From: Escherichia coli
GTDB lineage: Bacteria > Pseudomonadota > Gammaproteobacteria > Enterobacterales > Enterobacteriaceae
Direction: 5' to 3' (one strand)
Assembly: GCF_003019035.1 (NCBI RefSeq)
Contig: NZ_CP027447.1
DNA: 64,000 nucleotides
Each line of letters begins with the position of its first letter. Positions within the stretch are counted from its first letter, which is position 1. The position numbers and the translations under genes were made by a program. The notes beneath the pieces were generated by a model. It ran no database searches. It had not been told where the DNA came from and saw nothing but the letters and a program-made list of their open reading frames with translations. Positions 9,142-24,093 of this stretch are shown in pieces.

Positions 9142-9253
9142 AACGAATCCTGATAAATGATGTTGTGCTGTCTCGCATTTTATCAGTCACATTGGTGGGG
9201 GCAATGATTTCTCTGTTGTGGCACCGCCATTACCAGACGGCACCACAATGTTA

Positions 9254-10543
9254 TCAGGGATAGGTAACCTGGAAAGTACTGGTGGCTTTAAATTCGCCGG
9301 GTTCAATAGCAATATTCCCGTCTTGTTTTAATGTAGCCTGGAAATGAAGTGGATACGTTATACCGTCATCTTCCGGGTAAATCGCATCTGAATCGTTATT
9401 CTGCGTCTGGCCCGTATTATCTTTATAAACAGAAGTTGAATCATTAGGTTTCAGTATCATGAGGGCACTTTTACTGTTTGCTAATCCTTCAATCAATACC
9501 CCAACGCCTTTTGCTGCGCCATTTCCTGTGAGAGTGTTACCAAGGAGTTGCCTGTTTTCAGTACCAACCTTTGTTGAAACTAATTTTGTCTCGATATTAG
9601 TCACACGAACGCAGTTTTGAAGTGAAATATCAAAAGGAACCGGTGTGGCACCGTTTCTTATTTGTGCTTCACTATACTCGCCCATTTTTACCGTAGAACC
9701 AGTAACAGATGTTCCACTTAACATAGCTGTAAAACAAGTGGGATTACTTAATTTAATATTTAGTAGGTCAAAATCAACTCGAAGAAAATAGCTGTGTTCG
9801 TTAATGCCGATACCAGCACCATAAGCTTTAAATGAATATAAATAGTTTGATGAGCGCGATAATGAAACTTGTTGAGTTACTGTTGGATCAAAGTTGGTAT
9901 CTGTATAAAATTCGATGGTAAGATTTTGATAAATACCGCCTACAGCCCAATATTTGCTGGATGTGTTGGCATTGTTACAACTTTGGTATAATATGCTTTC
10001 GCTTGGGTTGTACCATGAAAAATATTGTTCTGCAGAATCACCAATATATATTCCTGGTGAACTAACGTTAGTTACAGTACCGTAAGCTGACCACATATTT
10101 GAAATTAATATTGTATAATACAAACCGGGAACAGATGTATTGAATAGTTTATGGTTACCATATCTTTTTCCAGAGTCAACCATTGCATTTTCGATACGCA
10201 TTGCCCCGCCACTGGTGTTATTGCTTCTGTTACAATAAAGAAAGCCTCCGCCAGAAGCAGTATCTAACTGACTCCAATGTAATTTCACCCCTGTTGGACC
10301 CAGTTGTGTTGGTTTATAAAATACTAAATTATTTGTACTGGTACCATACCTGAACACGACTGTCACATCTCCATTTGGCCCGGTTTCTCTCCATTTTTGA
10401 TCTGACGGACCAACGCCGTAGTTATTCCCAACAACATATCCTACGAAATCATCAGTGCCAGCACTCGCGGTATAACAACTCAAGCACAGAATTAAAAAAA
10501 GAAAATATCTGAAGAATGTCTTCATTTTCACTCCACCATCCAC
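9254..10543 (-). CDS. yadC: fimbrial tip adhesin-like protein
   Basis: 429-aa ORF with signal peptide; C-terminal donor-strand-type motif ...TSTFQVTYP; last gene of the yad operon. Alternative start at 10525 (MKTFFRY...) has the better SD (ggtggag). Confidence 0.85.
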
Positions 10544-10578
10544 TGCTGTAATAGTCGCAGTAATTTGTTTTTGGTATG

Positions 10579-11175
10579 TTACTCGTAGTAAATATCAATT
10601 AATACATGGCTTATGATTTGGCCGGGCATGACATTTAATACAGGGTTGATTTTTTGCATCCGTGTATAGAATTTCCAGGATGAATTGTTTAAATCAGCAG
10701 TCATCACCGGATAAATTGAACGAGAACTGCCCGCTGGGGTAAGAACATTAAATATATTAGCCGGGTCCTGAGTGGAAAATATTACTACACCTACGTTTTG
10801 AGCGCCGGCGACATTTTCATTTGCAAAAATTTGCTGAGAGCCTGTCGCCATCACGCCATTAAGCGGTTTAAAGTTAATATGTAACTGATTTAACACATTT
10901 CCAGAACCCTGGATGGCGCAGTCAGTCACAGTGATAGTGAACTCTCTCCCACCCGGATAATCATCTTCAGGTGCGACGTTACCAGAAAAATAATCCACAC
11001 CAACCACACCAAGGTCGATATTACCAAGGTTACTGAGGCCACTTTTACATGTACTGTTCTTGATATTGGCAACCATATCCACATCCAGCCCTGCATATAC
11101 AGGACTGGATGTGGCAAACAATAATGCCAGGAACAGACTTGTTTTTATCTTAATTTTTAGTTGAGAGGAAAGCAT
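10579..11175 (-). CDS. yadK: fimbrial minor subunit
   Basis: 198-aa ORF with signal peptide [28 protein letters not shown] and C-terminal pilin motif ...LIDIYYE. Confidence 0.88.
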
Positions 11176-11201
11176 AATCGGTCCCTGACTTTAATGGCCT
11201 G

Positions 11202-11807
11202 TTAGTTATAGGTGATAGAAAATGTTGCAGGTGCGGAAAACGGACCGGCAGTGATGTCGGTTTTGCTTTTATTTTTCTCTACCACCAGGCGTGCACTCAT
11301 AGGATGATATACTGACGTAGTTCCTGTTGCAGTGGAGATATTCACTTCCTGAGCGACTGGTGTTACGCAGCTAAATTGAGTCTTGCCGTCTGTACCAGGT
11401 GTCGTGGTATTCCATACTTCAACCGCAACAGCATTTGCTTTATCAGCAGCGGCGGAGCCGTTTGCAAAACCAGGCCCATCGTTGGCTGCTCCTTCACAAG
11501 TTGCGCGTTTAGTTAATTTTACGAGTGCTTTTTTATTAGGAATACCAGCACAATCCTTAAACTGTAACTTAAATATTTTAATTTTTGTTTTGGCATCAAT
11601 TTCAGGAATGTAAGCATCCCCAAATGCAATAACAGAAATAGGCTGATCATTGTCATCCACCAGGCTGGCGGTACAGGTTCCCGTCTCTACGGTTGCTTTA
11701 ACATTCAGCTTAACGCTATCGGTAGCTGCAAACAATTGGCTGGTGAATAGGGATGCCGCAAAAAAAACACCAGCGGGTAGTCCATAACATAATGTTTTAG
11801 ATTTCAT
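11202..11807 (-). CDS. yadL: fimbrial minor subunit
   Basis: ORF 11202..11816; start taken at MKSKTLCYG (11807); C-terminal pilin motif ...ATFSITYN. Confidence 0.88.
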   Translation of the reverse strand: MKSKTLCYGLPAGVFFAASLFTSQLFAATDSVKLNVKATVETGTCTASLVDDNDQPISVIAFGDAYIPEIDAKTKIKIFKLQFKDCAGIPNKKALVKLTKRATCEGAANDGPGFANGSAAADKANAVAVEVWNTTTPGTDGKTQFSCVTPVAQEVNISTATGTTSVYHPMSARLVVEKNKSKTDITAGPFSAPATFSITYN

Positions 11808-11821
11808 TATTATCATCCCTG

Positions 11822-12388
11822 TTATTCATAAATGAAATTGAAAGTTGCCTGGGCGCGGAAATCGCCAGGAACACCACTGCCAGCCGTGGTTTCGCGCAGT
11901 GCAACGGTCAGTTCAAGAGTTTTGTCTGTATCACTAATTTCCCATGGAATAAAACTCGGCGCACTGTTTGGGATTAAGAATGTCGAATCATCTTCACCAA
12001 GTGCTTTTATACCCATACCAATATAATTAGTTGTTGATGTAGTGTCAGAAGAGAGTGGAACAATTAATGCGGGAGTAGTTCCGGAAGCATTCCCACTGAG
12101 CCTGGTATTGATTTTGCTGACGCCTGTGGTACAACCGCTGGCAACCAGATTAAAATTCGCCTGTGCTTGAGTCGTTTTATTTGCAATTTTGTCCAGACCA
12201 ATAGTTCCTGGGAAAGTTAATGTGTAGGTGTCACTCCCATCAGGGGTGACATTGTCGCCTGATAACGTAATGTTACAAGTTGATGCTTTTACGGTTGCTG
12301 TAAAATCAACATTAATGTCTGTTGCAAGTACAGAGGATGATAAAAATAATCCAGTCAGTATTGCCAATTTATGCAGTGTTATTCTCAT
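11822..12388 (-). CDS. yadM: fimbrial minor subunit
   Basis: ORF 11822..12433; start taken at MRITLHKLAIL (12388), which avoids overlap with the htrE 3' end; C-terminal motif ...ATFNFIYE. Confidence 0.85.
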   Translation of the reverse strand: MRITLHKLAILTGLFLSSSVLATDINVDFTATVKASTCNITLSGDNVTPDGSDTYTLTFPGTIGLDKIANKTTQAQANFNLVASGCTTGVSKINTRLSGNASGTTPALIVPLSSDTTSTTNYIGMGIKALGEDDSTFLIPNSAPSFIPWEISDTDKTLELTVALRETTAGSGVPGDFRAQATFNFIYE

Positions 12389-12407
12389 TATGTGAAATTC
12401 CCTGTTG

Positions 12408-15008
12408 TTACTGAATCTGACAACTAATTCCATTCAGAATAATAGTTTGCGCTATTTTTTCTGGTGCTGCGCTCTGCTGGTAATGAGCAAGGCAAGTGAC
12501 AGGTTTACCGTCGTCAAGCCAGTTGATACGTATGTTACCTTGTTGTTCTATACCTCGAACAAAGGCCTGACCACCTTGCCCTACATTGCCAATAATATTT
12601 CCGTTCTCGTCATAAATATCTGCGGCAAACGGAATGTTTTTACCGTCAGTTCGCTTGATGTTCATAATCGCTGATTGTCCCTGAACTGTTTCAAAACCAG
12701 CAAAGACAACAGACCCTTGGCGGGGGACAGTAATAGCACTGGTACTTTTCAATTCAACGTCATTTTCCAGACCGTTAATATCGAGTGCAATTCGGTTTTC
12801 ATGATAAGGGGAGAGCGCGTTAGTAACACCATATCCCCAACGATCTATCGTACTATTACCATAGTTAATACGCGCCCCTTTAGCTCCTGGCGCTTGTACA
12901 ACGGCCAGAGTGTCTGAGTCGCTAAAGCTGTCATTACTGAAGGTCAGGCCGCCGCTATGTAAAACAAATCCGCCGTCGGTATTAAATGAGATTTGACGGC
13001 TATTATCACTGCTTGCGGAAACTGAACTGGAAAGAGTTCCCCAGGGAGATTCATAGCTTGCATATCCGCCGATATAGCCCAAATCATCACTGGATTTCAT
13101 CATCGAATAGCCTGTATTGACGCTATAACTGATATGGTTTTCGGTGCTATAACCACTACTGCTGATACTGAGTTGATTGCTGCCGTTGAAATCACTATTT
13201 AACTGAGTATCAATGCTCTGAAAACCAGAGTCGCGATGTTCTGAACCCAGTAACTTTTCGATAGGAATGCTAAAGCTTAGATAGATGCTGTCTTCATTAC
13301 CGCCGTCCTGGCTCCAGGACCGTTGGGCACTAATGCTGTAGCTTCCCCACGATGCGCTGTTACTATAACCAATGGAGTAGTTAGTATTATTTTGTCCGTC
13401 CGCCCAATAGTCAGACCAACTTCCGGCAAGATAGAATGAGCCATAGTCTTTCTTTTCAAACTTGAGGGGTTGGTTAATACTAACCGTAACCTGATTTTTC
13501 ATGCGTGAATAGTTACGCATATTTTTAGGTTCCAGGTCCTGTTCCGGATGTTTTACTTCATCGATCAATGTCAGTGCATCGTTAAGCCCCAGATAATTCT
13601 GGGTTGAATAACGGTAAGCGGCGATATTGAGCGAGGTTCTTGTATCTTCAAATAACTTATTCCAGGAGATGCGATAGCTTTGCCCGCGGTAGGTTTTATC
13701 GTCCGGAATTTGCACATCCGAGTGGGTTACATCGACTGAAAACGCACCGTACGCGGTATTCAGGCCAAGGCCCAACAGCCCGGCAGTATAGTTATTATCG
13801 GTAATTTGAATACCGGTATAACCTGTAAGATAGTTGTTCAGACCATAGTAGTAGCTGGCCTGGAACAAATTTGGCTCATTTTGAATATCGTCTTTTAATA
13901 CCTGACCAGCACTGATGTCCCATCTTCCAACACCAGGGCGTTGCATCTGAATTACCGAAGAAAATGGCTGGGAAAAAGTTCGTTTTGTGCCATCAGATTC
14001 TTCGATAGTGATAATGAGATCGCTGCCGTAGCCTGATGGGCTTAAATCATCAATAACAAATGCTCCCGGCGGCACGGTAGTTTCATAGATTTTATAACCA
14101 CCCTGGGTAATGGTGACTTTTGCGTTGGTGTTAGCGACACCATGAATAATAGGCGCAAAACTAGCTAACGCAGGCGGTAGCATTCGGCTGTCGCTGTATA
14201 AACGAATACCGCGAATACTGACAGCATCAAAGGTTTCCCCAGTTGTGTATGACTCACCCACTATTAACTGTGAACGCAAAGAGGCCAGGTCGCGCTGCAA
14301 ATAGCGATTCTGAAAATCGTAATCACTGCCTACATTGGTCATCCAGTTGTAGTTGCCGGTTGCGCGAAGCCGCCATGCCCCCAGATTTATACCGCCGTTA
14401 AATGCCGCATAAACACTGTCGTTTTTTCTGTCTGGAATTTCGCTGTGATATGCGTTCACATTGTAGGCCAGCATTGCGGCGTTAATACCGTTTTCCCACA
14501 ATGACGGATCAACATAGTTTTGGTAATTCTTCATTATCCAGGCTTGAGGAACGTTGATATCCAGCCGTTGATCGTTGACGTCATAATGAACTGAAGCCTG
14601 GGGAATGATATTCGCCAAATCTAGACAATCTCCGAGTTCGCCTTCGCGCTGTAGAAGGATGGAATTCTCGGCATTTATATCTGGTCTATTAATGTGAAAC
14701 TGCAATAAATTCTTCAGGGTGATACAAGCCTGCGCATTCTTCTTACCTTCGAGGGTAATAAAGGAAATGCTTTGGTTGATAACCGGTTGATCATTGATAT
14801 AAACACTGACGTCATACACGCCGGGCAAGGTAGGGTTACCTTCGGTATACCGACTAAGGTCGATGTTAGAAGCATCTTGCCCCATCAAAAAGGTATTATC
14901 ATATTCAACGTGTTCAGCGCTTATGGCACAGGGGCTTAATAGCAATGCGCAAAACGAGGCTATATATGTAAGTTTGTTATTATGCGTTTTTATGATTTTT
15001 CTGGACAC
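12408..15008 (-). CDS. htrE: outer-membrane fimbrial usher
   Basis: 866-aa ORF MSRKIIKTHNNKLTYIASFCALLLSPCAISAEHVEYDNTFLMG...; size and position typical of PapC/FimD-family ushers. Confidence 0.93.
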   Translation of the reverse strand: MSRKIIKTHNNKLTYIASFCALLLSPCAISAEHVEYDNTFLMGQDASNIDLSRYTEGNPTLPGVYDVSVYINDQPVINQSISFITLEGKKNAQACITLKNLLQFHINRPDINAENSILLQREGELGDCLDLANIIPQASVHYDVNDQRLDINVPQAWIMKNYQNYVDPSLWENGINAAMLAYNVNAYHSEIPDRKNDSVYAAFNGGINLGAWRLRATGNYNWMTNVGSDYDFQNRYLQRDLASLRSQLIVGESYTTGETFDAVSIRGIRLYSDSRMLPPALASFAPIIHGVANTNAKVTITQGGYKIYETTVPPGAFVIDDLSPSGYGSDLIITIEESDGTKRTFSQPFSSVIQMQRPGVGRWDISAGQVLKDDIQNEPNLFQASYYYGLNNYLTGYTGIQITDNNYTAGLLGLGLNTAYGAFSVDVTHSDVQIPDDKTYRGQSYRISWNKLFEDTRTSLNIAAYRYSTQNYLGLNDALTLIDEVKHPEQDLEPKNMRNYSRMKNQVTVSINQPLKFEKKDYGSFYLAGSWSDYWADGQNNTNYSIGYSNSASWGSYSISAQRSWSQDGGNEDSIYLSFSIPIEKLLGSEHRDSGFQSIDTQLNSDFNGSNQLSISSSGYSTENHISYSVNTGYSMMKSSDDLGYIGGYASYESPWGTLSSSVSASSDNSRQISFNTDGGFVLHSGGLTFSNDSFSDSDTLAVVQAPGAKGARINYGNSTIDRWGYGVTNALSPYHENRIALDINGLENDVELKSTSAITVPRQGSVVFAGFETVQGQSAIMNIKRTDGKNIPFAADIYDENGNIIGNVGQGGQAFVRGIEQQGNIRINWLDDGKPVTCLAHYQQSAAPEKIAQTIILNGISCQIQ

Positions 15009-15042
15009 GTTGTGCTTCCTGCTGCGTTTATTCCTGATTTAG

Positions 15043-15783
15043 TTACAGGCTGGCATTGCCTTCAATTGCACCACCAAAGTCATTTATGGCGAAGAAATGC
15101 ACTTTGGCAGAACTTGCTTTACCACTCATGCCTTTTATGTAGAAGGTTTCTTCACTCAGCGGGGCTACCATTTTTACATCCAGGGGGTAGGTTTTGCCAT
15201 TGGCGACTAAATCACCACTACTGAATGAGACGTGATACGGTGTCGGATTTGCGACGCGCAATGCAGTTTTTCCAGCAGAGGTTGCCCATGACCATTTCAG
15301 TGCTGCGGGTGCATCTGATGGCAGTCCGTTTAAACCTTCCGGGCGATAAAATAATTTGATACGCGTACGGAATGCCAATTGCAGAAGACTCTGGTTGGCG
15401 ACTTTATCTGCGTCAGGTTTGGGTGGAACCTCGAGTACGTTAAACCAGAAAACACTTTCTCGGTCTTTTGGCAGCGGTGAGGAAGCCGTGTACATCAATT
15501 TAATAGTTTGACCACGTTTGGCATCAATTCGCGAAACAGGAGGGGTGGCGGTAAATGGGACAGTAATACTCCCTGGTTCAGCACTATCGTCGCCAGTATC
15601 CAGCCAGCTCTGAACGAGTAACGGATTATTCCCCTTATTTTCCAGCCGAACATTAACGCTTTTTTCATTACTTTTATAAATTACGCGAGTTCCTGAAATT
15701 ACGATATCTGCTATTGCCGATGCGCTTAAGCTCATACAAGTGGCGAAGCATACAGCTGCAGTATGTTTAGCGTTTAAAAACAT
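15043..15783 (-). CDS. yadV: periplasmic fimbrial chaperone (PapD-like)
   Basis: 246-aa ORF with signal peptide; PapD-like chaperone between usher and major subunit genes. Confidence 0.92.
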   Translation of the reverse strand: MFLNAKHTAAVCFATCMSLSASAIADIVISGTRVIYKSNEKSVNVRLENKGNNPLLVQSWLDTGDDSAEPGSITVPFTATPPVSRIDAKRGQTIKLMYTASSPLPKDRESVFWFNVLEVPPKPDADKVANQSLLQLAFRTRIKLFYRPEGLNGLPSDAPAALKWSWATSAGKTALRVANPTPYHVSFSSGDLVANGKTYPLDVKMVAPLSEETFYIKGMSGKASSAKVHFFAINDFGGAIEGNASL

Positions 15784-15813
15784 AAACCATTCCCGACAGA
15801 GTTAATTAAAATA

Positions 15814-15848
15814 GGGAGTAACATTCCACTATTAAGAAAGTTACTCCC
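15814..15848 (-). terminator. intra-operon stem-loop (partial terminator/attenuator) between major pilin gene yadN and chaperone gene yadV
   Basis: Inverted repeat gggagtaac (15814..15822) / gttactccc (15840..15848); on the minus-strand transcript it is followed by uauuuuaauu. Confidence 0.45.
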
Positions 15849-15880
15849 ATAGATATTCAGTTTATGAATCTAACGAAGGA

Positions 15881-16465
15881 TTACTGGTAAGTAATGGTAT
15901 ATGCAGTGTTGGTTTTAACATAACCAGCAGTTGGTGCCTGGCTTGCTTCAGCACGGACATAGGATGCTTTAAAATCATAGGTTGCAGATTTAGTCGTAGC
16001 GTCCAGCGTTTTTGTGTAAATATCGCCTGGGTTGTTAATTTGAACCTGTTTGATAGTGGAACCATCAATATTGTGCAGGGCAATATTTACGCCGTCAGAA
16101 GGCGTGTTAATAGACATATCGTTGTTCAGAGTCCCTTTGCTGTTGCCAAAGAACACGGAACCGAAGGTCATTTTTGCGGTGCTACCAGGATTCGGGTTTG
16201 CATTGCTGCAGTCAACGGTGATGCTGAAAGGTTTAGCTTTAGCACCTACGGTGTCATTCAGTACGCCAGCACTGATTTCAGCAACAGTTGCAGTTTGCAG
16301 AAGCACCAGGCCATCTTTGTTGCCACCATCAACACGGGTTTCACAGGTGTTATCAACTACCAGACCACTGATATTTAATTGGCCACCGTCCAGTGCAGCA
16401 GAAGCATTACCAGCAACCATTGCTAACATCAAGCTGGACAGCGCAAAACCTAATTTTTTAGACAT
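15881..16465 (-). CDS. yadN: fimbrial major subunit
   Basis: ORF 15881..16489; start taken at [23 protein letters not shown] (16465) preceded by SD aagga; C-terminal motif ...AYTITYQ. Confidence 0.9.
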
Positions 16466-16772
16466 AATAATCCTTGAATAATATTCCATGAGTTTAACTT
16501 TAATCAGCCCCCCTCAAGCAGGAAGTCCCGAGAAAGAAAAGGTGAATGGTTTGTTAATGATGGATGTTTGGATTTACCGAATGTAACATCTGTTCATCAT
16601 TAGGGGAGTATTGTGCACATTTAATATTAAATATCCACTTAATTCAATTTTAAGTAAAACTAAATATATAATGTGACGATAATGGTGTATATGGGCGGGG
16701 CTGCCAAGTGGGGTAAAATATTATATGTTTATGATTATATTCTGGGGCGAATTAATTGCAATTGTGGGAAGG

Positions 16773-17291
16773 CTATTTTCGGAATTTATTTATATTTGCA
16801 ACACTATTGTATTGCCATTTATTTAATTCATCGAATTTATTTATTCGTAAAAAGTTGTCTAATACTGTCCCATCAGGAAACACTAACTTCGGCGCAATTT
16901 CAAACAGTGGCCACAGCATAAAGCCACGATTTTTCATATCGTAGTGCGGAACGGTCAGACGTTCGGTATTTATTACTTCATTACCAAACAGCATGATGTC
17001 GAGATCCAGCGTGCGCGGTCCCCAGCGTTCAGCTTTACGGACGCGACCTTGCTGCAATTCGATACGTTGTGTGTGATTGAGTAGCTCTTCAGGGGCAAGA
17101 GTGGTTTCCAGCGCGACGGCGGCATTTAAGTAATCGGGTTGATCTTGCGGCCCCAGCGGTGGGGTGCGGTAAAACGAAGAAACAGCAAGAATGCGGCTTT
17201 CTGGAATATCGCCTAATGCTTTCAGGGCAGCATTGACCTGCTCCAGCGGAGAGGCCAGATTGCTGCCTATGGCAATATACGCCACTGTCAT
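16773..17291 (-). CDS. folK: 2-amino-4-hydroxy-6-hydroxymethyldihydropteridine pyrophosphokinase (HPPK)
   Basis: 172-aa [35 protein letters not shown]...; start ATG overlaps pcnB stop (ATGA). The last ~35 residues differ from the K-12 protein as I remember it (see findings). Confidence 0.9.
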
Positions 17292-18685
17292 GCGGTACCC
17301 TCACGACGCGGTGCGCGTTTGCGTGGACGACGAGTACGACGACGCGGTGACGGTTCTTCATCCAGTTCGTTAAGCATCCCTTTTTGGTCTGGCGGCGCGG
17401 AAACCTGGAACTCACCCCACCATTTCACCAGACGTTGCAGTTCAGCGTTACGCTCAACTTCGGCTCGTAAGGCCAACAGGTCGTATGCCGCACGGAACTT
17501 AGGATGCTCCAGCAGTTTCCATGCGCGTTTTCCCTGACGACGGGACATACGCAACTGCAACTGCCAGATATCGCGAGTTAGCGTAGTCAGACGTTTCGGG
17601 ATCGCCAGTGAACGGCAGGCTTCGTCCAGCACGTCGTTCATCGCCAGTGCGAAAGCGTCGTGATAGGTCAGGCCGCTCTCCTGAGCAATTTTCTGTGCCG
17701 TCTCCAGCAGTGGATACCAGAACATGGCGGCAAACAGGAACGCCGGGTTCACGCGCATATCGTTATGGATACGCGTATCGGTATTCTTCAGCACCTGTTC
17801 AATGATCCGCTCCATCGGGCTGTCGCCATTTTCCGTGAAGTAGCGGGTAATGGTCGGGAACAGCGGCTGGAACAGATGATATTCACACAGCAGCTTATAA
17901 GTTTCGTAACCGTAGCCCGCTTGCAACAGTTTCAGCGATTCTTCAAACAGACGTGCCGGTGGGATATCGTTCAGTAAGGTTGCCAGGCGTGGGATCGGCT
18001 CGGCGGTTTCCGGGCTGATGCGCATGCCCAATTTGGCGGCAAAACGAACCGCGCGAAGCATCCGTACCGGATCTTCACGGTAGCGCGTTTCCGGGTTACC
18101 AATCAGACGGATAACGCCGTCTTTCAGATCCTTCATGCCGCCAACGTAATCACGGACGGTAAAATCTGCCACGCTGTAATACAGGCTGTTGATAGTGAAA
18201 TCGCGGCGCTGGGCGTCTTCTTCGATGGAGCCGAAAATGTTGTCGCGCAGCAACATACCGTTTTGCCCGCGTTGGGAGGTCGTGCGGTCGCTGACGTTAC
18301 CTTCGTGATGTCCACGGAAGGTCGCAACTTCGATAATCTCCGGGCCAAACATCACATGAGCCAGACGGAAACGGCGACCCACCAGGCGGCAGTTACGGAA
18401 CAGTTTGCGCACCTGCTCTGGCGTGGCGTTGGTGGTCACGTCAAAATCTTTCGGCTTTTTGCCAAGTAACAGGTCGCGCACGCCGCCGCCAACCAGCCAG
18501 GCTTCGTATCCCGCTTTATTGAGCCTGTACATTACCTTCAGGGCATTTTCACTGATATCTTTGCGGGAAATAGCATGCTGCTCACGCGGGATCACCGTCA
18601 CCTGTGGACGGGCGACTGCCTGTTCAGCCTCGCTTTCCTCGCGGCTTAGCACCTTGCGGCAAAAATTAGCGACTCGGGTAAAAAT
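17288..18685 (-). CDS. pcnB: poly(A) polymerase I
   Basis: ORF track 17288..18706. Mature N-terminus (I)[21 protein letters not shown] begins at an AUU codon (18685..18683) preceded by SD gaggtg; nucleotidyltransferase motif [10 protein letters not shown]...DFD. Confidence 0.92.
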
Positions 18686-18744
18686 AGTACACCTCGGTAG
18701 TGTCAAACATCATTCAGGACAAAAAAATAGCGGCTAATCATAGC

Positions 18745-19671
18745 TCAGCATGACGCATTTGAGAATGTTGAATTTACAATTGCCGACTCAGGCACGGCAG
18801 TCAGCGTCCAGTTTTTGACGGCTGACTGAAGGATTTGCTCGACGCTGAAATCCTGCCAGTGTGTTTCTACCTGCTGACCCAGAAAATGAAGTGCCGCGAT
18901 TAACACCGGGCGCGGATCGCCTTTCGGCAACGCAGGCGCATGATTCTGCTTGGAAAGTTTAGCGCCTTGTGTGTTAAGCGCCAGCGGTAAATGAATGTAA
19001 TCTGGCACTTTCCAGCCAAAAAGCTGGTACAGCGAGATTTGTCGCACTGTCGGTTCAATCAAATCTGCCCCACGAACAATTTCTGTGACGTCCTGGAAGT
19101 GATCATCGACCACCACCGCCAGGTTATAGGCAAACAAACCATCACGACGATGAATAATAAAATCTTCTTGCGCCAGTTTTTCGTCGGCGTGAATAATTCC
19201 GCGTAGTTGATCAGTAAACTGCGTGACCGGATGCAACTGCCGAATTCGCACAGCCGCGTTGTCTGGTCCATGATGCAAATCCCGGCAATGACCGTCGTAA
19301 ATACCGCCAATGCTTTGAATACGCGCACGCGTGCAGGTGCAGTAATAACTTAGTCCTTGCTCATATAACCAGGCGAGTGCTTCGCGATAGGCGTGGTGAC
19401 GTTGCGATTGCCAGAGAACGTCGCCGTCCCAGTGCAGGCCGTAATGTTCCAGCTGGCGCAGGATAGTCTCTGCGGCACCGGGAACTTCACGAGGCGGGTC
19501 GATATCTTCTATGCGTACCAGCCAGCGACCTTGCCGGGCGCGAGCCTGTAAATAGCTGCCAAGCGCGGCAATCAGAGAGCCAAAATGAAGCTCGCCGGAA
19601 GGAGAGGGGGCGAAGCGACCAATATAGTGTGTGTCTGTCATCTCTTTGAACAAAAAATAAGGCGGGAGCAT
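18745..19671 (-). CDS. gluQ: glutamyl-Q tRNA(Asp) synthetase
   Basis: 308-aa ORF; class-I synthetase motifs ELHFGS and KLSK. The first 10 codons overlap the dksA terminator, so initiation at 19641 ([10 protein letters not shown]) is plausible. Confidence 0.9.
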
Positions 19672-19679
19672 TTCCCGCC
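19652..19679 (-). terminator. rho-independent terminator downstream of dksA, upstream of / overlapping the gluQ start
   Basis: Minus-strand RNA: ggcggga-aaugc-ucccgcc followed by uuauuuuuug (forward stem 19661..19667 / 19673..19679, A-run 19652..19660). Confidence 0.65.
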
Positions 19680-19707
19680 TGTGGTAAACGTGATGGAACG
19701 GCTGTAA

Positions 19708-20163
19708 TTAGCCAGCCATCTGTTTTTCGCGAATTTCAGCCAGCGTTTTGCAGTCGATGCACAGATCGGCTGTCGGGCGCGCTTCCAGACGGCGAATACC
19801 AATTTCAACACCGCAGGATTCGCAGTAGCCGAAATCTTCGTCTTCCACTTTTTTCAGCGTCTTCTCGATCTTTTTGATCAGCTTACGCTCGCGATCGCGG
19901 TTACGCAGTTCGAGGCTGAACTCTTCTTCCTGGGCTGCACGGTCTACCGGGTCCGGGAAGTTGGCTGCTTCATCCTGCATATGTGTAACGGTGCGATCGA
20001 CTTCATCCCTGAGTTGATTACGCCATGCTTCCAGAATACGACGGAAGTGCGCCAGCTGGGCTTCGTTCATATACTCTTCGCCCGGCTTCTCCTGATATGG
20101 CTCCACCCCAGCGATGGCGAGAATACTCAGGGACGATGTTTTACGGTTTTGCCCTTCTTGCAT
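19708..20163 (-). CDS. dksA: RNA polymerase-binding transcription factor DksA
   Basis: ORF 19708..20181; start at [26 protein letters not shown] (20163) with SD aaggaga; C4 zinc finger [25 protein letters not shown]. Confidence 0.95.
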
Positions 20164-20340
20164 GTTGCTTCTCCTTAACACGCACTATCGATCCCCATGT
20201 TCGGGGGAAAAATGAGGCCGCTATAAATAGCAGATGCTTTTCCGGATAGCAATTATCTAAACGTAACACTTGACAACTGTGTGAGGAAAAGCGTATTTGC
20301 GCACGCGACCAGAATGTAAATTAACCAGTTACTTACTCTA

Positions 20341-21590
<1,250 letters not shown>

Positions 21591-21663
21591 GTGAGGCACT
21601 CGGTTATGAATTACCGCGATGCTACAATGTGGCGCGAAGAATGTTAACCCTCTGGAGCGTTTT

Positions 21664-24093
21664 GTGTCGTCGTTGCCCGTTGCTGCCGTCTTACCTGAGT
21701 TACTTGCTGCCCTCGATGGTGCACCGCAGGTGTTATTAAGTGCGCCGACCGGGGCCGGGAAATCAACCTGGCTGCCGCTGCAACTGCTGGCGCATCCCGG
21801 CATTAACGGAAAAATTATCCTGCTGGAGCCGCGTCGTCTGGCGGCGCGTAACGTCGCGCAACGGCTGGCGGAGCTGCTTAACGAAAAGCCAGGCGATACC
21901 GTTGGCTACCGGATGCGTGCGCAAAACTGCGTCGGCCCGAATACCCGCCTGGAAGTGGTTACCGAAGGCGTGCTGACGCGCATGATCCAGCGTGACCCGG
22001 AACTGAGCGGTGTTGGATTGGTGATCCTCGATGAGTTTCATGAGCGCAGTTTGCAGGCGGATTTGGCGTTGGCGCTGTTACTCGATGTGCAACAAGGTCT
22101 GCGTGATGACCTTAAACTGCTGATTATGTCGGCTACGCTGGACAACGACCGCTTGCAGCAAATGCTGCCAGAAGCGCCCGTCATCATCTCAGAAGGGCGC
22201 TCGTTTCCGGTTGAACTCCGTTATTTACCGCTGCCCGCGCATCAGCGTTTTGACGAAGCCGTTGCGGTAGCCACCGCCGAAATGCTGCGTCAGGAAAGCG
22301 GATCATTACTGTTATTTTTACCTGGCGTCGGAGAAATTCAGCGTGTGCAGGAACAACTGGCTTCGCGCATCGGCAGTGATGTGTTGCTCTGCCCGCTGTA
22401 TGGCGCGTTGTCGCTGAACGATCAGCGAAAAGCGATCCTCCCGGCACCGCAAGGGATGCGCAAAGTGGTGCTGGCGACCAATATTGCTGAAACCAGTTTA
22501 ACCATTGAAGGTATTCGTCTGGTGGTGGATTGTGCCCAGGAGAGGGTGGCGCGTTTTGATCCGCGTACAGGGCTTACGCGGTTGATTACTCAACGCGTTA
22601 GTCAGGCGTCGATGACGCAACGTGCCGGGCGTGCCGGGCGTCTGGAGCCGGGTATCTGCCTGCATTTAATCGCCAAAGAACAAGCAGAACGCGCTGCCGC
22701 GCAAAGTGAACCGGAGATCTTACAAAGCGATCTTTCCGGTTTGCTGATGGAATTACTGCAATGGGGATGCAGCGATCCGGCGCAGATGAGCTGGCTGGAT
22801 CAACCGCCAACGGTGAATCTACTGGCCGCGAAACGCCTGTTACGGATGCTGGGGGCGCTGGACGGTGAACGGCTTAGTGCGCAAGGGCAAAAAATGGCAG
22901 CGCTGGGTAACGATCCGCGTTTAGCGGCAATGCTGGTTAGCGCGAAGAACGACGACGAAGCTGCTACCGCGGCAAAAATTGCCGCCATTCTCGAAGAGCC
23001 GCCACGGATGGGCAATAGTGACCTGGGCGTGGCGTTTTCGCGCAATCAACCCGCCTGGCAGCAACGTAGTCAGCAACTGTTAAAACGCTTAAACGTACGC
23101 GGCGGTGAGGCAGACAGTTCGCTTATCGCGCCGCTACTTGCCAGAGCGTATGCCGATCGCATTGCTCGTCGCCGTGGGCAAGATGGACGCTATCAACTGG
23201 CAAACGGCATGGGGGCGATGCTCGATGCCGACGATGCGCTAAGCCGCCACGAATGGTTGATCGCACCGTTATTATTGCAGGGCAGCGCCTCGCCGGATGC
23301 GCGGATTTTACTGGCGCTGCCGGTCGATATTGATGAGTTAGTACAACGCTGCCCGCAGCTGGTACAGCAATCGGACACCGTGGAGTGGGATGACGCGCAA
23401 GGTACGCTGAAAGCCTGGCGTCGGCTGCAAATCGGTCAGTTGATGGTGAAAGTGCAGCCACTGGCGAAACCCTCGGAAGACGAGTTGCATCAGGCGATGC
23501 TTAACGGCATTCGTGATAAAGGTTTAAGCGTGCTCAACTGGACGGCGGAAGCGGAACAGCTACGCTTGCGTTTGTTATGCGCCGCAAAGTGGTTGCCGGA
23601 ATATGACTGGCCAGCGGTTGATGATGAAAGTTTGTTGGCGACGCTGGAAACGTGGCTACTGCCGCATATGACAGGCGTACATTCGCTACGCGGCCTGAAA
23701 TCACTCGATATTTATCAGGCACTGCGTGGATTACTTGATTGGGTAATGCAGCAACGTCTGGATAGTGAATTGCCTGCGCATTACACTGTGCCGACGGGAA
23801 GCCGGATCGCCATTCGTTACCATGAAGATAACCCGCCCGCGCTGGCGGTGAGAATGCAGGAGATGTTTGGTGAGGCCACTAATCCGACTATCGCCCAGGG
23901 GCGCGTACCGTTGGTGCTGGAGTTGCTTTCCCCTGCCCAAAGGCCGCTGCAAATCACGCGTGATTTGAGCGCCTTCTGGAAAGGAGCGTACCGTGAGGTG
24001 CAAAAAGAGATGAAAGGGCGTTATCCCAAACATGTCTGGCCGGACGACCCGGCAAACACCGCACCGACGCGACGAACGAAAAAGTATTCGTGA
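21664..24093 (+). CDS. hrpB: ATP-dependent RNA helicase HrpB (DEAH box)
   Basis: ORF 21619..24093; GTG start at 21664 gives (M)SSLPVAAVLPELLAALDGAPQVLLSAPTGAGKST...; Walker A and DEFHER motif. Confidence 0.93.
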   Translation: MSSLPVAAVLPELLAALDGAPQVLLSAPTGAGKSTWLPLQLLAHPGINGKIILLEPRRLAARNVAQRLAELLNEKPGDTVGYRMRAQNCVGPNTRLEVVTEGVLTRMIQRDPELSGVGLVILDEFHERSLQADLALALLLDVQQGLRDDLKLLIMSATLDNDRLQQMLPEAPVIISEGRSFPVELRYLPLPAHQRFDEAVAVATAEMLRQESGSLLLFLPGVGEIQRVQEQLASRIGSDVLLCPLYGALSLNDQRKAILPAPQGMRKVVLATNIAETSLTIEGIRLVVDCAQERVARFDPRTGLTRLITQRVSQASMTQRAGRAGRLEPGICLHLIAKEQAERAAAQSEPEILQSDLSGLLMELLQWGCSDPAQMSWLDQPPTVNLLAAKRLLRMLGALDGERLSAQGQKMAALGNDPRLAAMLVSAKNDDEAATAAKIAAILEEPPRMGNSDLGVAFSRNQPAWQQRSQQLLKRLNVRGGEADSSLIAPLLARAYADRIARRRGQDGRYQLANGMGAMLDADDALSRHEWLIAPLLLQGSASPDARILLALPVDIDELVQRCPQLVQQSDTVEWDDAQGTLKAWRRLQIGQLMVKVQPLAKPSEDELHQAMLNGIRDKGLSVLNWTAEAEQLRLRLLCAAKWLPEYDWPAVDDESLLATLETWLLPHMTGVHSLRGLKSLDIYQALRGLLDWVMQQRLDSELPAHYTVPTGSRIAIRYHEDNPPALAVRMQEMFGEATNPTIAQGRVPLVLELLSPAQRPLQITRDLSAFWKGAYREVQKEMKGRYPKHVWPDDPANTAPTRRTKKYS

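Follow-up and report, generated by a model that had tools for sequence, protein, structure and literature searches.

The interval between folK and panB in a 64,000-nucleotide stretch of Escherichia coli DNA (contig NZ_CP027447.1; hereafter the window), positions 9254-16772, raises the question of what system it encodes, why its sequence departs so far from that of K-12, and what a stable hairpin behind its first gene does to the genes that follow. The best explanation of the whole, which we consider highly probable, is that the locus is the Yad fimbrial operon in a rare, diverged mosaic allele, whose promoter would be silenced by H-NS and whose hairpin would raise the level of yadN mRNA. The system is already known and published, and nothing in it is new in kind. 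Positions 9000-17000 of the window matched the chromosome of E. coli strain SCU-301, isolated from a human rectal swab, at 100% identity, and the gene annotation was taken from the RefSeq record of this strain. This record labels, on the minus strand, an adhesin, three fimbrial proteins, an outer-membrane usher, a fimbrial chaperone and yadN, flanked by panC and panB on one side and by folK (16773-17291) and pcnB on the other. We found seven intact, co-directional frames over 9254-16465, between folK and panB, which in the order of transcription are as follows.

15881..16465, minus strand: yadN, major pilin of 194 amino acids (RefSeq coding sequence; Pfam Fimbrial, E=5.6e-12).
15043..15783, minus strand: yadV (ecpD), PapD-like periplasmic chaperone of 246 amino acids (PapD_N, PF00345, E=2.7e-44; PapD_C, PF02753, E=1.7e-18).
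12408..15008, minus strand: htrE, outer-membrane usher of 866 amino acids counted from GTG 15008 (RefSeq start at 14996, ATC).
11822..12391, minus strand: yadM, minor pilin (RefSeq coding sequence; Pfam Fimbrial, E=5e-19).
11202..11807, minus strand: yadL, minor pilin (NCBIfam YadL equivalog NF011797, 371.7 bits against a cutoff of 206).
10579..11175, minus strand: yadK, minor pilin (NF011794, 297 bits against a cutoff of 132; Pfam Fimbrial weak).
9254..10525, minus strand: yadC, two-domain tip adhesin of 423 amino acids (NF007267, 'fimbrial-like adhesin', 888.7 bits against a cutoff of 391).

The largest spacer within the operon was the 97-nucleotide (nt) gap between yadN and yadV, the others measuring 14-53 nt. 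The Pfam Fimbrial family (PF00419) matched all five pilin-like proteins, with YadK at 22.2 bits, under the gathering score of 25.6 bits. The chaperone product carried PapD_N and PapD_C, and the usher product carried PapC_N (PF13954), Usher (PF00577; 519 bits, full length) and PapC_C (PF13953). The NCBIfam equivalog models for YadV (NF007398, 444 bits against a cutoff of 285), HtrE (NF007337, 1644 bits against 830), YadL, YadK and a 432-residue YadC subtype were passed well over their cutoffs, and the K-12-type YadC model, NF007268, gave 592 bits. Thus a chaperone, an usher, pilin subunits and a two-domain tip adhesin, the components by which a chaperone-usher operon is recognised, were all found. 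The features of the Yad (gamma-4) type were likewise present, namely the folK-panB site, the gene order and the orthology of usher and chaperone to HtrE and YadV; the usher phylogeny for the gamma-4 clade was taken from PMC7098969 and PMC3559732 rather than recomputed. The synteny panB-yadC-yadK-yadL-yadM-htrE-yadV-yadN-folK is that of K-12, and the seven genes, their order, their site and the lengths of yadN, yadV, yadM, yadL and yadK are shared with the Yad operons of K-12 and extraintestinal pathogenic E. coli. The present locus differs from that of K-12 in a yadC longer by 11 codons, an htrE shorter by 3 codons (RefSeq starts) and a FolK longer by 13 residues. Taken together, these comparisons showed that 9254-16772 carries what is, as predicted from its frames, an intact Yad (gamma-4) chaperone-usher fimbrial operon at its conserved folK-panB site. 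The initial annotation of this DNA had proposed a yad operon with this seven-gene order and these family assignments, all of which are borne out by synteny, Pfam and the NCBIfam equivalogs. It had also called the operon cryptic, a term that fits K-12, where silence is known, and that for the present strain is an extrapolation. Two starts in the RefSeq record appear doubtful. The GTG of htrE at 15008 is preceded by a Shine-Dalgarno sequence, AGGAAG, and is a more plausible start than the non-canonical ATC at 14996; similarly, the RefSeq start of yadM is a non-canonical ATA at 12391, and the ATG at 12388 is more plausible.

The five pilin-like proteins ended in ...ITYQ, ...FIYE, ...ITYN, ...IYYE and ...VTYP, and all five had Gly at -14 and Tyr at -2. 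YadN, YadM, YadL and YadK each began with a signal peptide followed by an N-terminal extension of alternating hydrophobic residues, and YadN was 91.8% identical in amino acid sequence to its K-12 counterpart. In YadC, the Fimbrial (pilin) domain of Pfam covered residues 275-422 only, and the N-terminal ~250 residues gave no pilin match in Pfam. In the structures of the Pap and Fim systems, the C-terminal ...xYx is the F strand, which is anchored through its carboxylate in the cleft of the chaperone, and the donor strand is the N-terminal extension. The five endings had been read exactly in the initial annotation; the label 'donor-strand-type' given to them was wrong, as the motif is the F strand recognised by the chaperone. 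Mature YadV has Arg8, and the equivalent of Lys112 was placed by the RIKLFYRP motif alone, without a structural alignment. By established family knowledge, the pilus subunits would be exported through Sec, capped by YadV through donor-strand complementation, delivered to HtrE and polymerised by donor-strand exchange, with the YadC tip adhesin assembled first, the YadK, YadL and YadM adaptors next and the YadN shaft last. Other Yad alleles are described as assembling fimbriae, with YadC binding D-xylose or annexin A2 (PMC13245861; PMC6921372). The lectin domain of YadC here, however, is only ~58% identical to that of K-12.

How far, and where, the locus has diverged bears on a claim of the initial annotation that yadC is about 49 bp longer than the K-12 allele, as expected for an adhesin under diversifying selection. 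We found that yadC, counted from the RefSeq ATG at 10525, is 1272 bp long as compared with 1239 bp in K-12, an excess of 33 bp (11 codons). This start aligns residue for residue with that of K-12 YadC (MKTFFRY and MKTIFRY, respectively); when the longest open reading frame (ORF), starting from GTG at 10543, is counted, the excess is 51 bp, and it is to this frame that the initial figure of about 49 bp corresponds. The gene is therefore longer, as claimed, and an excess of 49 bp is ruled out, since two intact reading frames cannot differ by 49 bp. Two small insertions where the lectin domain begins account for most of the excess. YadC was 63% identical to the K-12 protein overall, with 57.8% in the lectin domain and 74.1% in the pilin domain.

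The divergence, however, was not confined to yadC. Nucleotide identity to K-12 was 69% for yadC, 74% for yadK, 71.5% for yadL, 68.5% for yadM, 77.5% for htrE, 76% for yadV and 86% for yadN, and a sliding comparison showed no recovery before the interior of panB on one side and the 3' end of folK on the other. At the amino acid level, the products of yadK, yadL and yadM were 62-69% identical to those of K-12, and the usher and chaperone were 82-84% identical (83.9% for HtrE and 81.7% for YadV). Synonymous divergence (dS) was saturated across the operon, at 0.6-4 in comparison with 0.23-0.38 in panC and panB, and pairwise ratios of nonsynonymous to synonymous divergence (dN/dS) were 0.02-0.15. 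An explanation in which the adhesin gene alone became longer and more divergent, through diversifying selection on the tip adhesin, would account for the lectin domain being the least conserved part of YadC and for the 11 extra residues at its start, and greater variation of the lectin domain has been described over 911 operons (PMC13245861). Site-specific positive selection within the lectin domain is also compatible with the data, dS being uncomputable there. On the other hand, yadC is matched in its divergence by yadK, yadL and yadM, the usher and chaperone have diverged as well, dS is saturated in every gene, the pairwise dN/dS of yadC is 0.15, and the borders of the allele are sharp recombination junctions. 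We therefore regard this explanation as improbable. The data instead indicate ancient allele lineages under purifying selection, exchanged by recombination as whole operons; of the diversifying selection proposed initially, the observation that stands is that the lectin domain is the most divergent. Variation of yad and its recombination between phylogroups have already been described (PMC13245861; PMC3559732).

The allele of the operon body is rare, being found at >=99% identity in ~160 of 5426 complete E. coli genomes (~3%). Comparison with the strains AR_0077 and GF131 located a segment of a still rarer type at its upstream end.

16379..16899, minus strand: recombination segment of rare type, comprising the yadN signal-peptide codons, the promoter and the folK 3' end (212 differences over 521 bp as compared with AR_0077).

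Strain AR_0077 showed no differences from the window at 15003-16378 and at 16900-17499, and ~40 over 8200-16378, clustered in htrE. Conversely, GF131 was 98-100% identical to the window on both flanks and at 16400-16900, and 57-82% identical from ~9500 to 16400. Among the 5426 genomes, the 16379-16899 segment was found at >=98.8% identity only in SCU-301 and GF131, with three further genomes at ~87.5%; it was ~50% alignable with K-12, and most of the other full-length matches were ~78% identical to it. These comparisons showed the locus to be, as judged from the alignments, a two-parent mosaic, in which structural genes of the AR_0077 type are joined to a promoter and folK 3' segment of the GF131 type, with one of the junctions inside the yadN signal-peptide codons. 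A second, small mosaic tract was seen in htrE at 13987-14686, where ~30 substitutions relative to AR_0077 are clustered amid otherwise identical sequence.

The segment reaches into folK, where it alters the end of the gene.

16773..16814, minus strand: 13-codon extension of folK, in which the usual stop TAA has become CAA (allele alignment).

FolK consists of 172 amino acids here and in GF131, as compared with 159 elsewhere. An exact-pattern scan of genome contigs for the folK read-through sequence gave no match, and a scan of metagenomes found the extension sequence in one contig, OJYG01000274.1. Over 10091-19700 (9.6 kb of the compared 10091-22715), this contig had 1 difference from the window; from ~19800 (dksA onward), its identity fell to ~78%, where the window is ~97% identical to other E. 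coli. The contig is either a chimeric assembly joined in the conserved dksA, or another genomic background with the same yad locus. In all lineages, the variable yad region starts within the last ~11-25 codons of folK. Just past the usual folK stop, a block of ~21 bp at 16777-16797 (AATATAAATAAATTCCGAAAA) was nearly invariant in all yad promoter types, with hypervariable neighbours; in the present strain it belongs to the translated FolK extension. The block may have a function, for example as a terminator or as the binding element of a regulator. The folK-panB site is also variable in content: E. coli A1_136 has a six-gene version of the operon with only two minor pilins, and Sta-like operons with ~58% identical chaperones were found there in E69, E. 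albertii, E. whittamii and Escherichia sp. E1V33.

In the yadN-yadV spacer, two further elements were found.

15814..15848, minus strand: post-pilin RNA hairpin, GGGAGUAAC...GUUACUCCC (folding free energy -18.4 kcal/mol, z -4.88).
15802..15813, minus strand: U-rich tail, UAUUUUAAUUAA, directly after the hairpin.

The hairpin begins 32 nt past the yadN stop. Read as RNA (15848->15814), it consists of a 9-bp stem, a 1x1 mismatch, a 4-bp stem and a 7-nt loop, the basal stem having 5 G-C pairs, and none of 200 shuffled sequences folded as well. The tail has 5 U in its first 8 nt. The same 97-nt spacer of K-12 carries a hairpin and U-run at the same position with a different stem sequence, a 13-bp stem CAGGGAAUAAUAA/UUAUUAUUCCCUG followed by UUUUAAUUAA. 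Hairpins at the same spot were present in all the yad alleles compared, among them those of K-12, FY10, ATCC 25922, M1, FDAARGOS_433, 4/0, A1_136, GF131 and 2013C-4282, with varying stems and loops, and in K-12 and other alleles UUUU or UUUUUUU abuts the stem. In an alignment of seven alleles, 97.5% of the cells were paired, as compared with 40-53% when the partners were slid, and 3 pairs had changed on both sides; the spacer outside the hairpin was ~60-80% identical among alleles.

A similar arrangement was found beyond this locus. In a chaperone-based scan with one genome per species, pilin-chaperone-usher operons lay directly after pcnB-folK in E. albertii, E. whittamii, Escherichia sp. E1V33, a Pseudocitrobacter metagenome-assembled genome and E. 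coli E69, and all five had an unrelated GC-rich hairpin with UUAUUUU right after the pilin stop. These folK-linked operons and Salmonella Sta share the pcnB-folK locus and the pilin-chaperone-usher order with Yad (PMC3559732, Wurpel et al.), and the folK-linked Sta-like operons also share the U-tract hairpin after the pilin gene; they differ from Yad in their sequences, with chaperones ~58%, ushers ~62% and major pilins ~40% identical. The best non-Yad NCBIfam matches of YadN, YadM and YadL were StaA, StaD and StaE, with scores under the equivalog cutoffs of StaA and StaD. Most of the remoter chaperone-usher operons, those of Bordetella petrii, Delftia, Klebsiella oxytoca and Enterobacteriaceae bacterium LSJC7, also had a post-pilin hairpin. 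Three Pseudomonas loci had a second chaperone-like gene (38-40% identical to YadV) instead of a pilin upstream, with a spacer of 6-7 nt. Within K-12, strong hairpins followed elfA, yraH and sfmA, a weaker one followed fimA, and none followed yehD. These observations support the view that the predicted hairpin after yadN is a conserved structure and, on the comparative evidence, one that is under selection. The initial annotation had placed a stem-loop with a U-rich tail at exactly this position and had called it the usual device for making more major subunit than downstream products. The position holds in energy, z score and alleles, and the tail is present and weak. Since post-pilin hairpins occur across alleles, species and the K-12 operons, the phrase 'usual device' is fair.

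As for its function, we infer that the hairpin may act as a leaky intrinsic terminator, as a protector of the 3' end that stabilises the mRNA, or as both. In either case, yadN mRNA would exceed the mRNA of the chaperone, usher and minor subunits. A consensus-hexamer scan found no promoter-like site between the hairpin and yadV, and the downstream genes therefore depend on read-through. With a looser terminator scan (45-nt minimum free energy <= -14, tail <= -3.5), the hairpin was the sole sense-strand match in the 7.5 kb of the operon. Several observations weigh against this proposal. The U-tract is weak, its 4 consecutive U being offset by 2 nt, and a tail score of the TransTermHP style (own implementation) was -3.8 here and -4.4 in K-12, at the weak end for intrinsic terminators. 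A strict terminator scan missed the hairpin, because its internal mismatch exceeds the loop limit of the scan, and the looser scan gave 117 matches in 64 kb, so that the motif alone is not discriminating. The covariation is modest, 18-22 of 500 shuffles reaching the observed scores among related sequences. Finally, the supplements of an E. coli Term-seq paper (PMC7815308) contain no entry for yadN, yadV or ecpD; the operon is absent from this 3'-end mapping because it is silent in laboratory K-12.

The two scan results would suit a chance inverted repeat in an AT-rich spacer, devoid of function. Such a repeat would hardly be expected to show a z score of -4.88, to recur at the same place across alleles with compensatory changes, or to be swapped for other hairpins in other species, and we consider this explanation extremely unlikely.

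The weakness of the U-tract speaks for a second alternative, namely that the hairpin does not terminate transcription and instead blocks exonucleases after endonucleolytic processing, giving the yadN segment a longer life, as in decay of the pap and CFA/I type. The downstream genes require full read-through, as an internal promoter-like site is absent, and in A1_136 the strong hairpin leads into UCUUGAAAAC, which makes a poor terminator tail. Differential decay of mRNA has been described for the papBA and CFA/I fimbrial operons (PMC5927463). In the same paper, which cites Baga 1988 and Bricker & Belasco 1999, papA mRNA is described as ending in a terminator structure that resists RNases, and pap as yielding more pilin message than assembly-gene message; like yad, pap has a stem-loop directly after the major-subunit gene. 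In pap, however, the stable papA mRNA also needs an RNase E cut between papB and papA and a 5' hairpin. Moreover, a U-run directly follows the stem in most alleles and in the orthologous loci of other species (CCCUGUUUU, CCUGUUUUUUU, CCUUAUUUU), and a pure stability element gives no reason to conserve it. Stabilisation without any termination thus seems possible and rather unlikely, and the roles of terminator and stability element are compatible with each other in the reading that we prefer, a leaky terminator, a stabiliser or both.

In a third alternative, on the model of FimR2, the hairpin would be set free as a stable small RNA (sRNA) that has its own regulatory task. The K-12 RefSeq record has this 35-nt sRNA in the equivalent fimA-fimI spacer (1675-1709 of the extracted locus), and FimR2 is derived from a 3' untranslated region, depends on RNase E and binds CsrA via GGA motifs (PMC9723502). 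The yad hairpin is likewise a structured 35-nt element, located within a chaperone-usher operon in the spacer that follows the gene of the major pilin, and it contains GGA twice, in GGGAG and UGGAA. In contrast to FimR2, which it does not resemble in sequence, the yad element is a long hairpin with a U-tail. The sequence of its stem and loop varies among alleles and the structure alone is kept, unlike in a base-pairing sRNA; no Rfam family matched 8900-17400 at E <= 1, and the GGA motifs lie in stems rather than in the loop. In enterohaemorrhagic E. coli 86-24, CsrA had no major effect on yadN expression (PMC11287998), and the operon is silent under most conditions. An sRNA of this kind therefore appears very unlikely. 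FimR2 in the fimA-fimI spacer of K-12 is nevertheless a precedent for functional RNAs in post-pilin spacers. A more far-reaching combination, for which we see only a slim chance, is that the hairpin would give rise to a FimR2-like sRNA or to regulated read-through setting the ratio of pilin to machinery and that, separately, the swapped 16379-16899 promoter cassette may rewire the timing of expression. In a full-text search of the literature for yadN and terminator, the one relevant finding was that bicyclomycin, an inhibitor of Rho, induces yadN (PMC10980228), an observation in keeping with H-NS silencing. The conserved hairpin behind yadN, no description of which was found in the literature searched, is a small addition.

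Upstream of yadN lies the region from which the operon would be transcribed.

16466..16772, minus strand: yadN-folK intergenic region, with the yad promoter and 5' untranslated region (34.2% GC, in the lowest 0.5% of 307-bp windows in the 64 kb).

The GC minimum of the 64 kb (29.3%) was found at 16550-16856, and the operon had 42.8% GC as compared with 52.1% for the rest of the window. K-12 likewise has an AT-rich upstream region, and its promoter region measures 369 bp, as compared with 307 bp here. Consensus promoter-like hexamers were found at 16761-16734, 16707-16679 and 16691-16663, and their count was not above shuffle expectation. In K-12, CFT073 and EC958, H-NS represses yad, and deletion of hns raises promoter activity >100-fold (PMC13245861). 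By inference from these other alleles, transcription of the present operon would start in the AT-rich intergenic region and be silenced by H-NS. Two points count against this extension: the Lang high-affinity motif of H-NS was not clearly enriched, with 1 match in the region, and repression is known from the promoters of other alleles, to which the segment here is ~50-80% identical (K-12, CFT073 and EC958), base composition being the basis for this one. The AT-richness is consistent with H-NS silencing of this promoter, and on both the strongly AT-rich ~300 bp and their consistency with H-NS, taken as a statement about sequence, the initial annotation was right.

We found no GATC sites and no RfaH ops element in 16466-16772, and no recombinase or papI/papB-type gene between folK and yadN. 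In this respect the yad upstream region differs from that of pap, having neither papB/papI-type regulators nor GATC for a Dam/Lrp switch. A 10-nt inverted repeat (16380-16389 and 16904-16913) brackets the divergent ~520-bp segment and was considered as an invertible switch. We rejected this candidate because the repeat rests on a palindrome, TGGCCA, that both arms contain within conserved coding sequence, because the segment runs collinear with its counterparts in other alleles, and because the neighbourhood has no recombinase gene. The lack of GATC, ops and a credible invertible element agrees with the published view of Yad as a system without phase variation (PMC13245861).

At the other end of the operon, a further hairpin was found.

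9216..9247, minus strand: GC-rich 13-bp hairpin directly after the tandem yadC stops (TGATAA), without a U-tract (fold of 9142-9262).

It would be an operon-end structure, and it sits upstream of a promoter-like site of panB at 9204-9177. Outside the operon, the window contains an insertion of ~400 bp that is absent from K-12 and holds an ORF of 77 amino acids (7155-7388, plus strand), a duplicate of the C-terminal domain of RpnC; the segment common to both is TLAQWFEE...RQEFAQRFLSKGMSREDVAE...LPL.E.DKLI. The rpnC gene itself (6154-7086) has a tandem repeat coding for (RQEV)n at ~6910-6990. C-terminal fragments of Rpn proteins have been reported as intragenic antitoxins.

Yad is a recognised core-associated adhesin of E. 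coli, involved in urinary, bloodstream and avian infection and in environmental persistence. The additions made here, namely the conserved hairpin, the old, shuffled alleles and the longer FolK, are incremental and carry little weight beyond annotation. The yad alleles are older than the species-level divergence of the flanking genes and have been shuffled as cassettes, with breakpoints in yadN, yadC, panB and folK, and the reach of the variable region into folK gives a few strains a FolK that is longer by 13 residues. Individual yad genes are unequally induced, which is left unexplained in its source (PMC13245861), and the hairpin after yadN, as a putative leaky terminator or stabiliser, offers a concrete explanation for this unequal induction.

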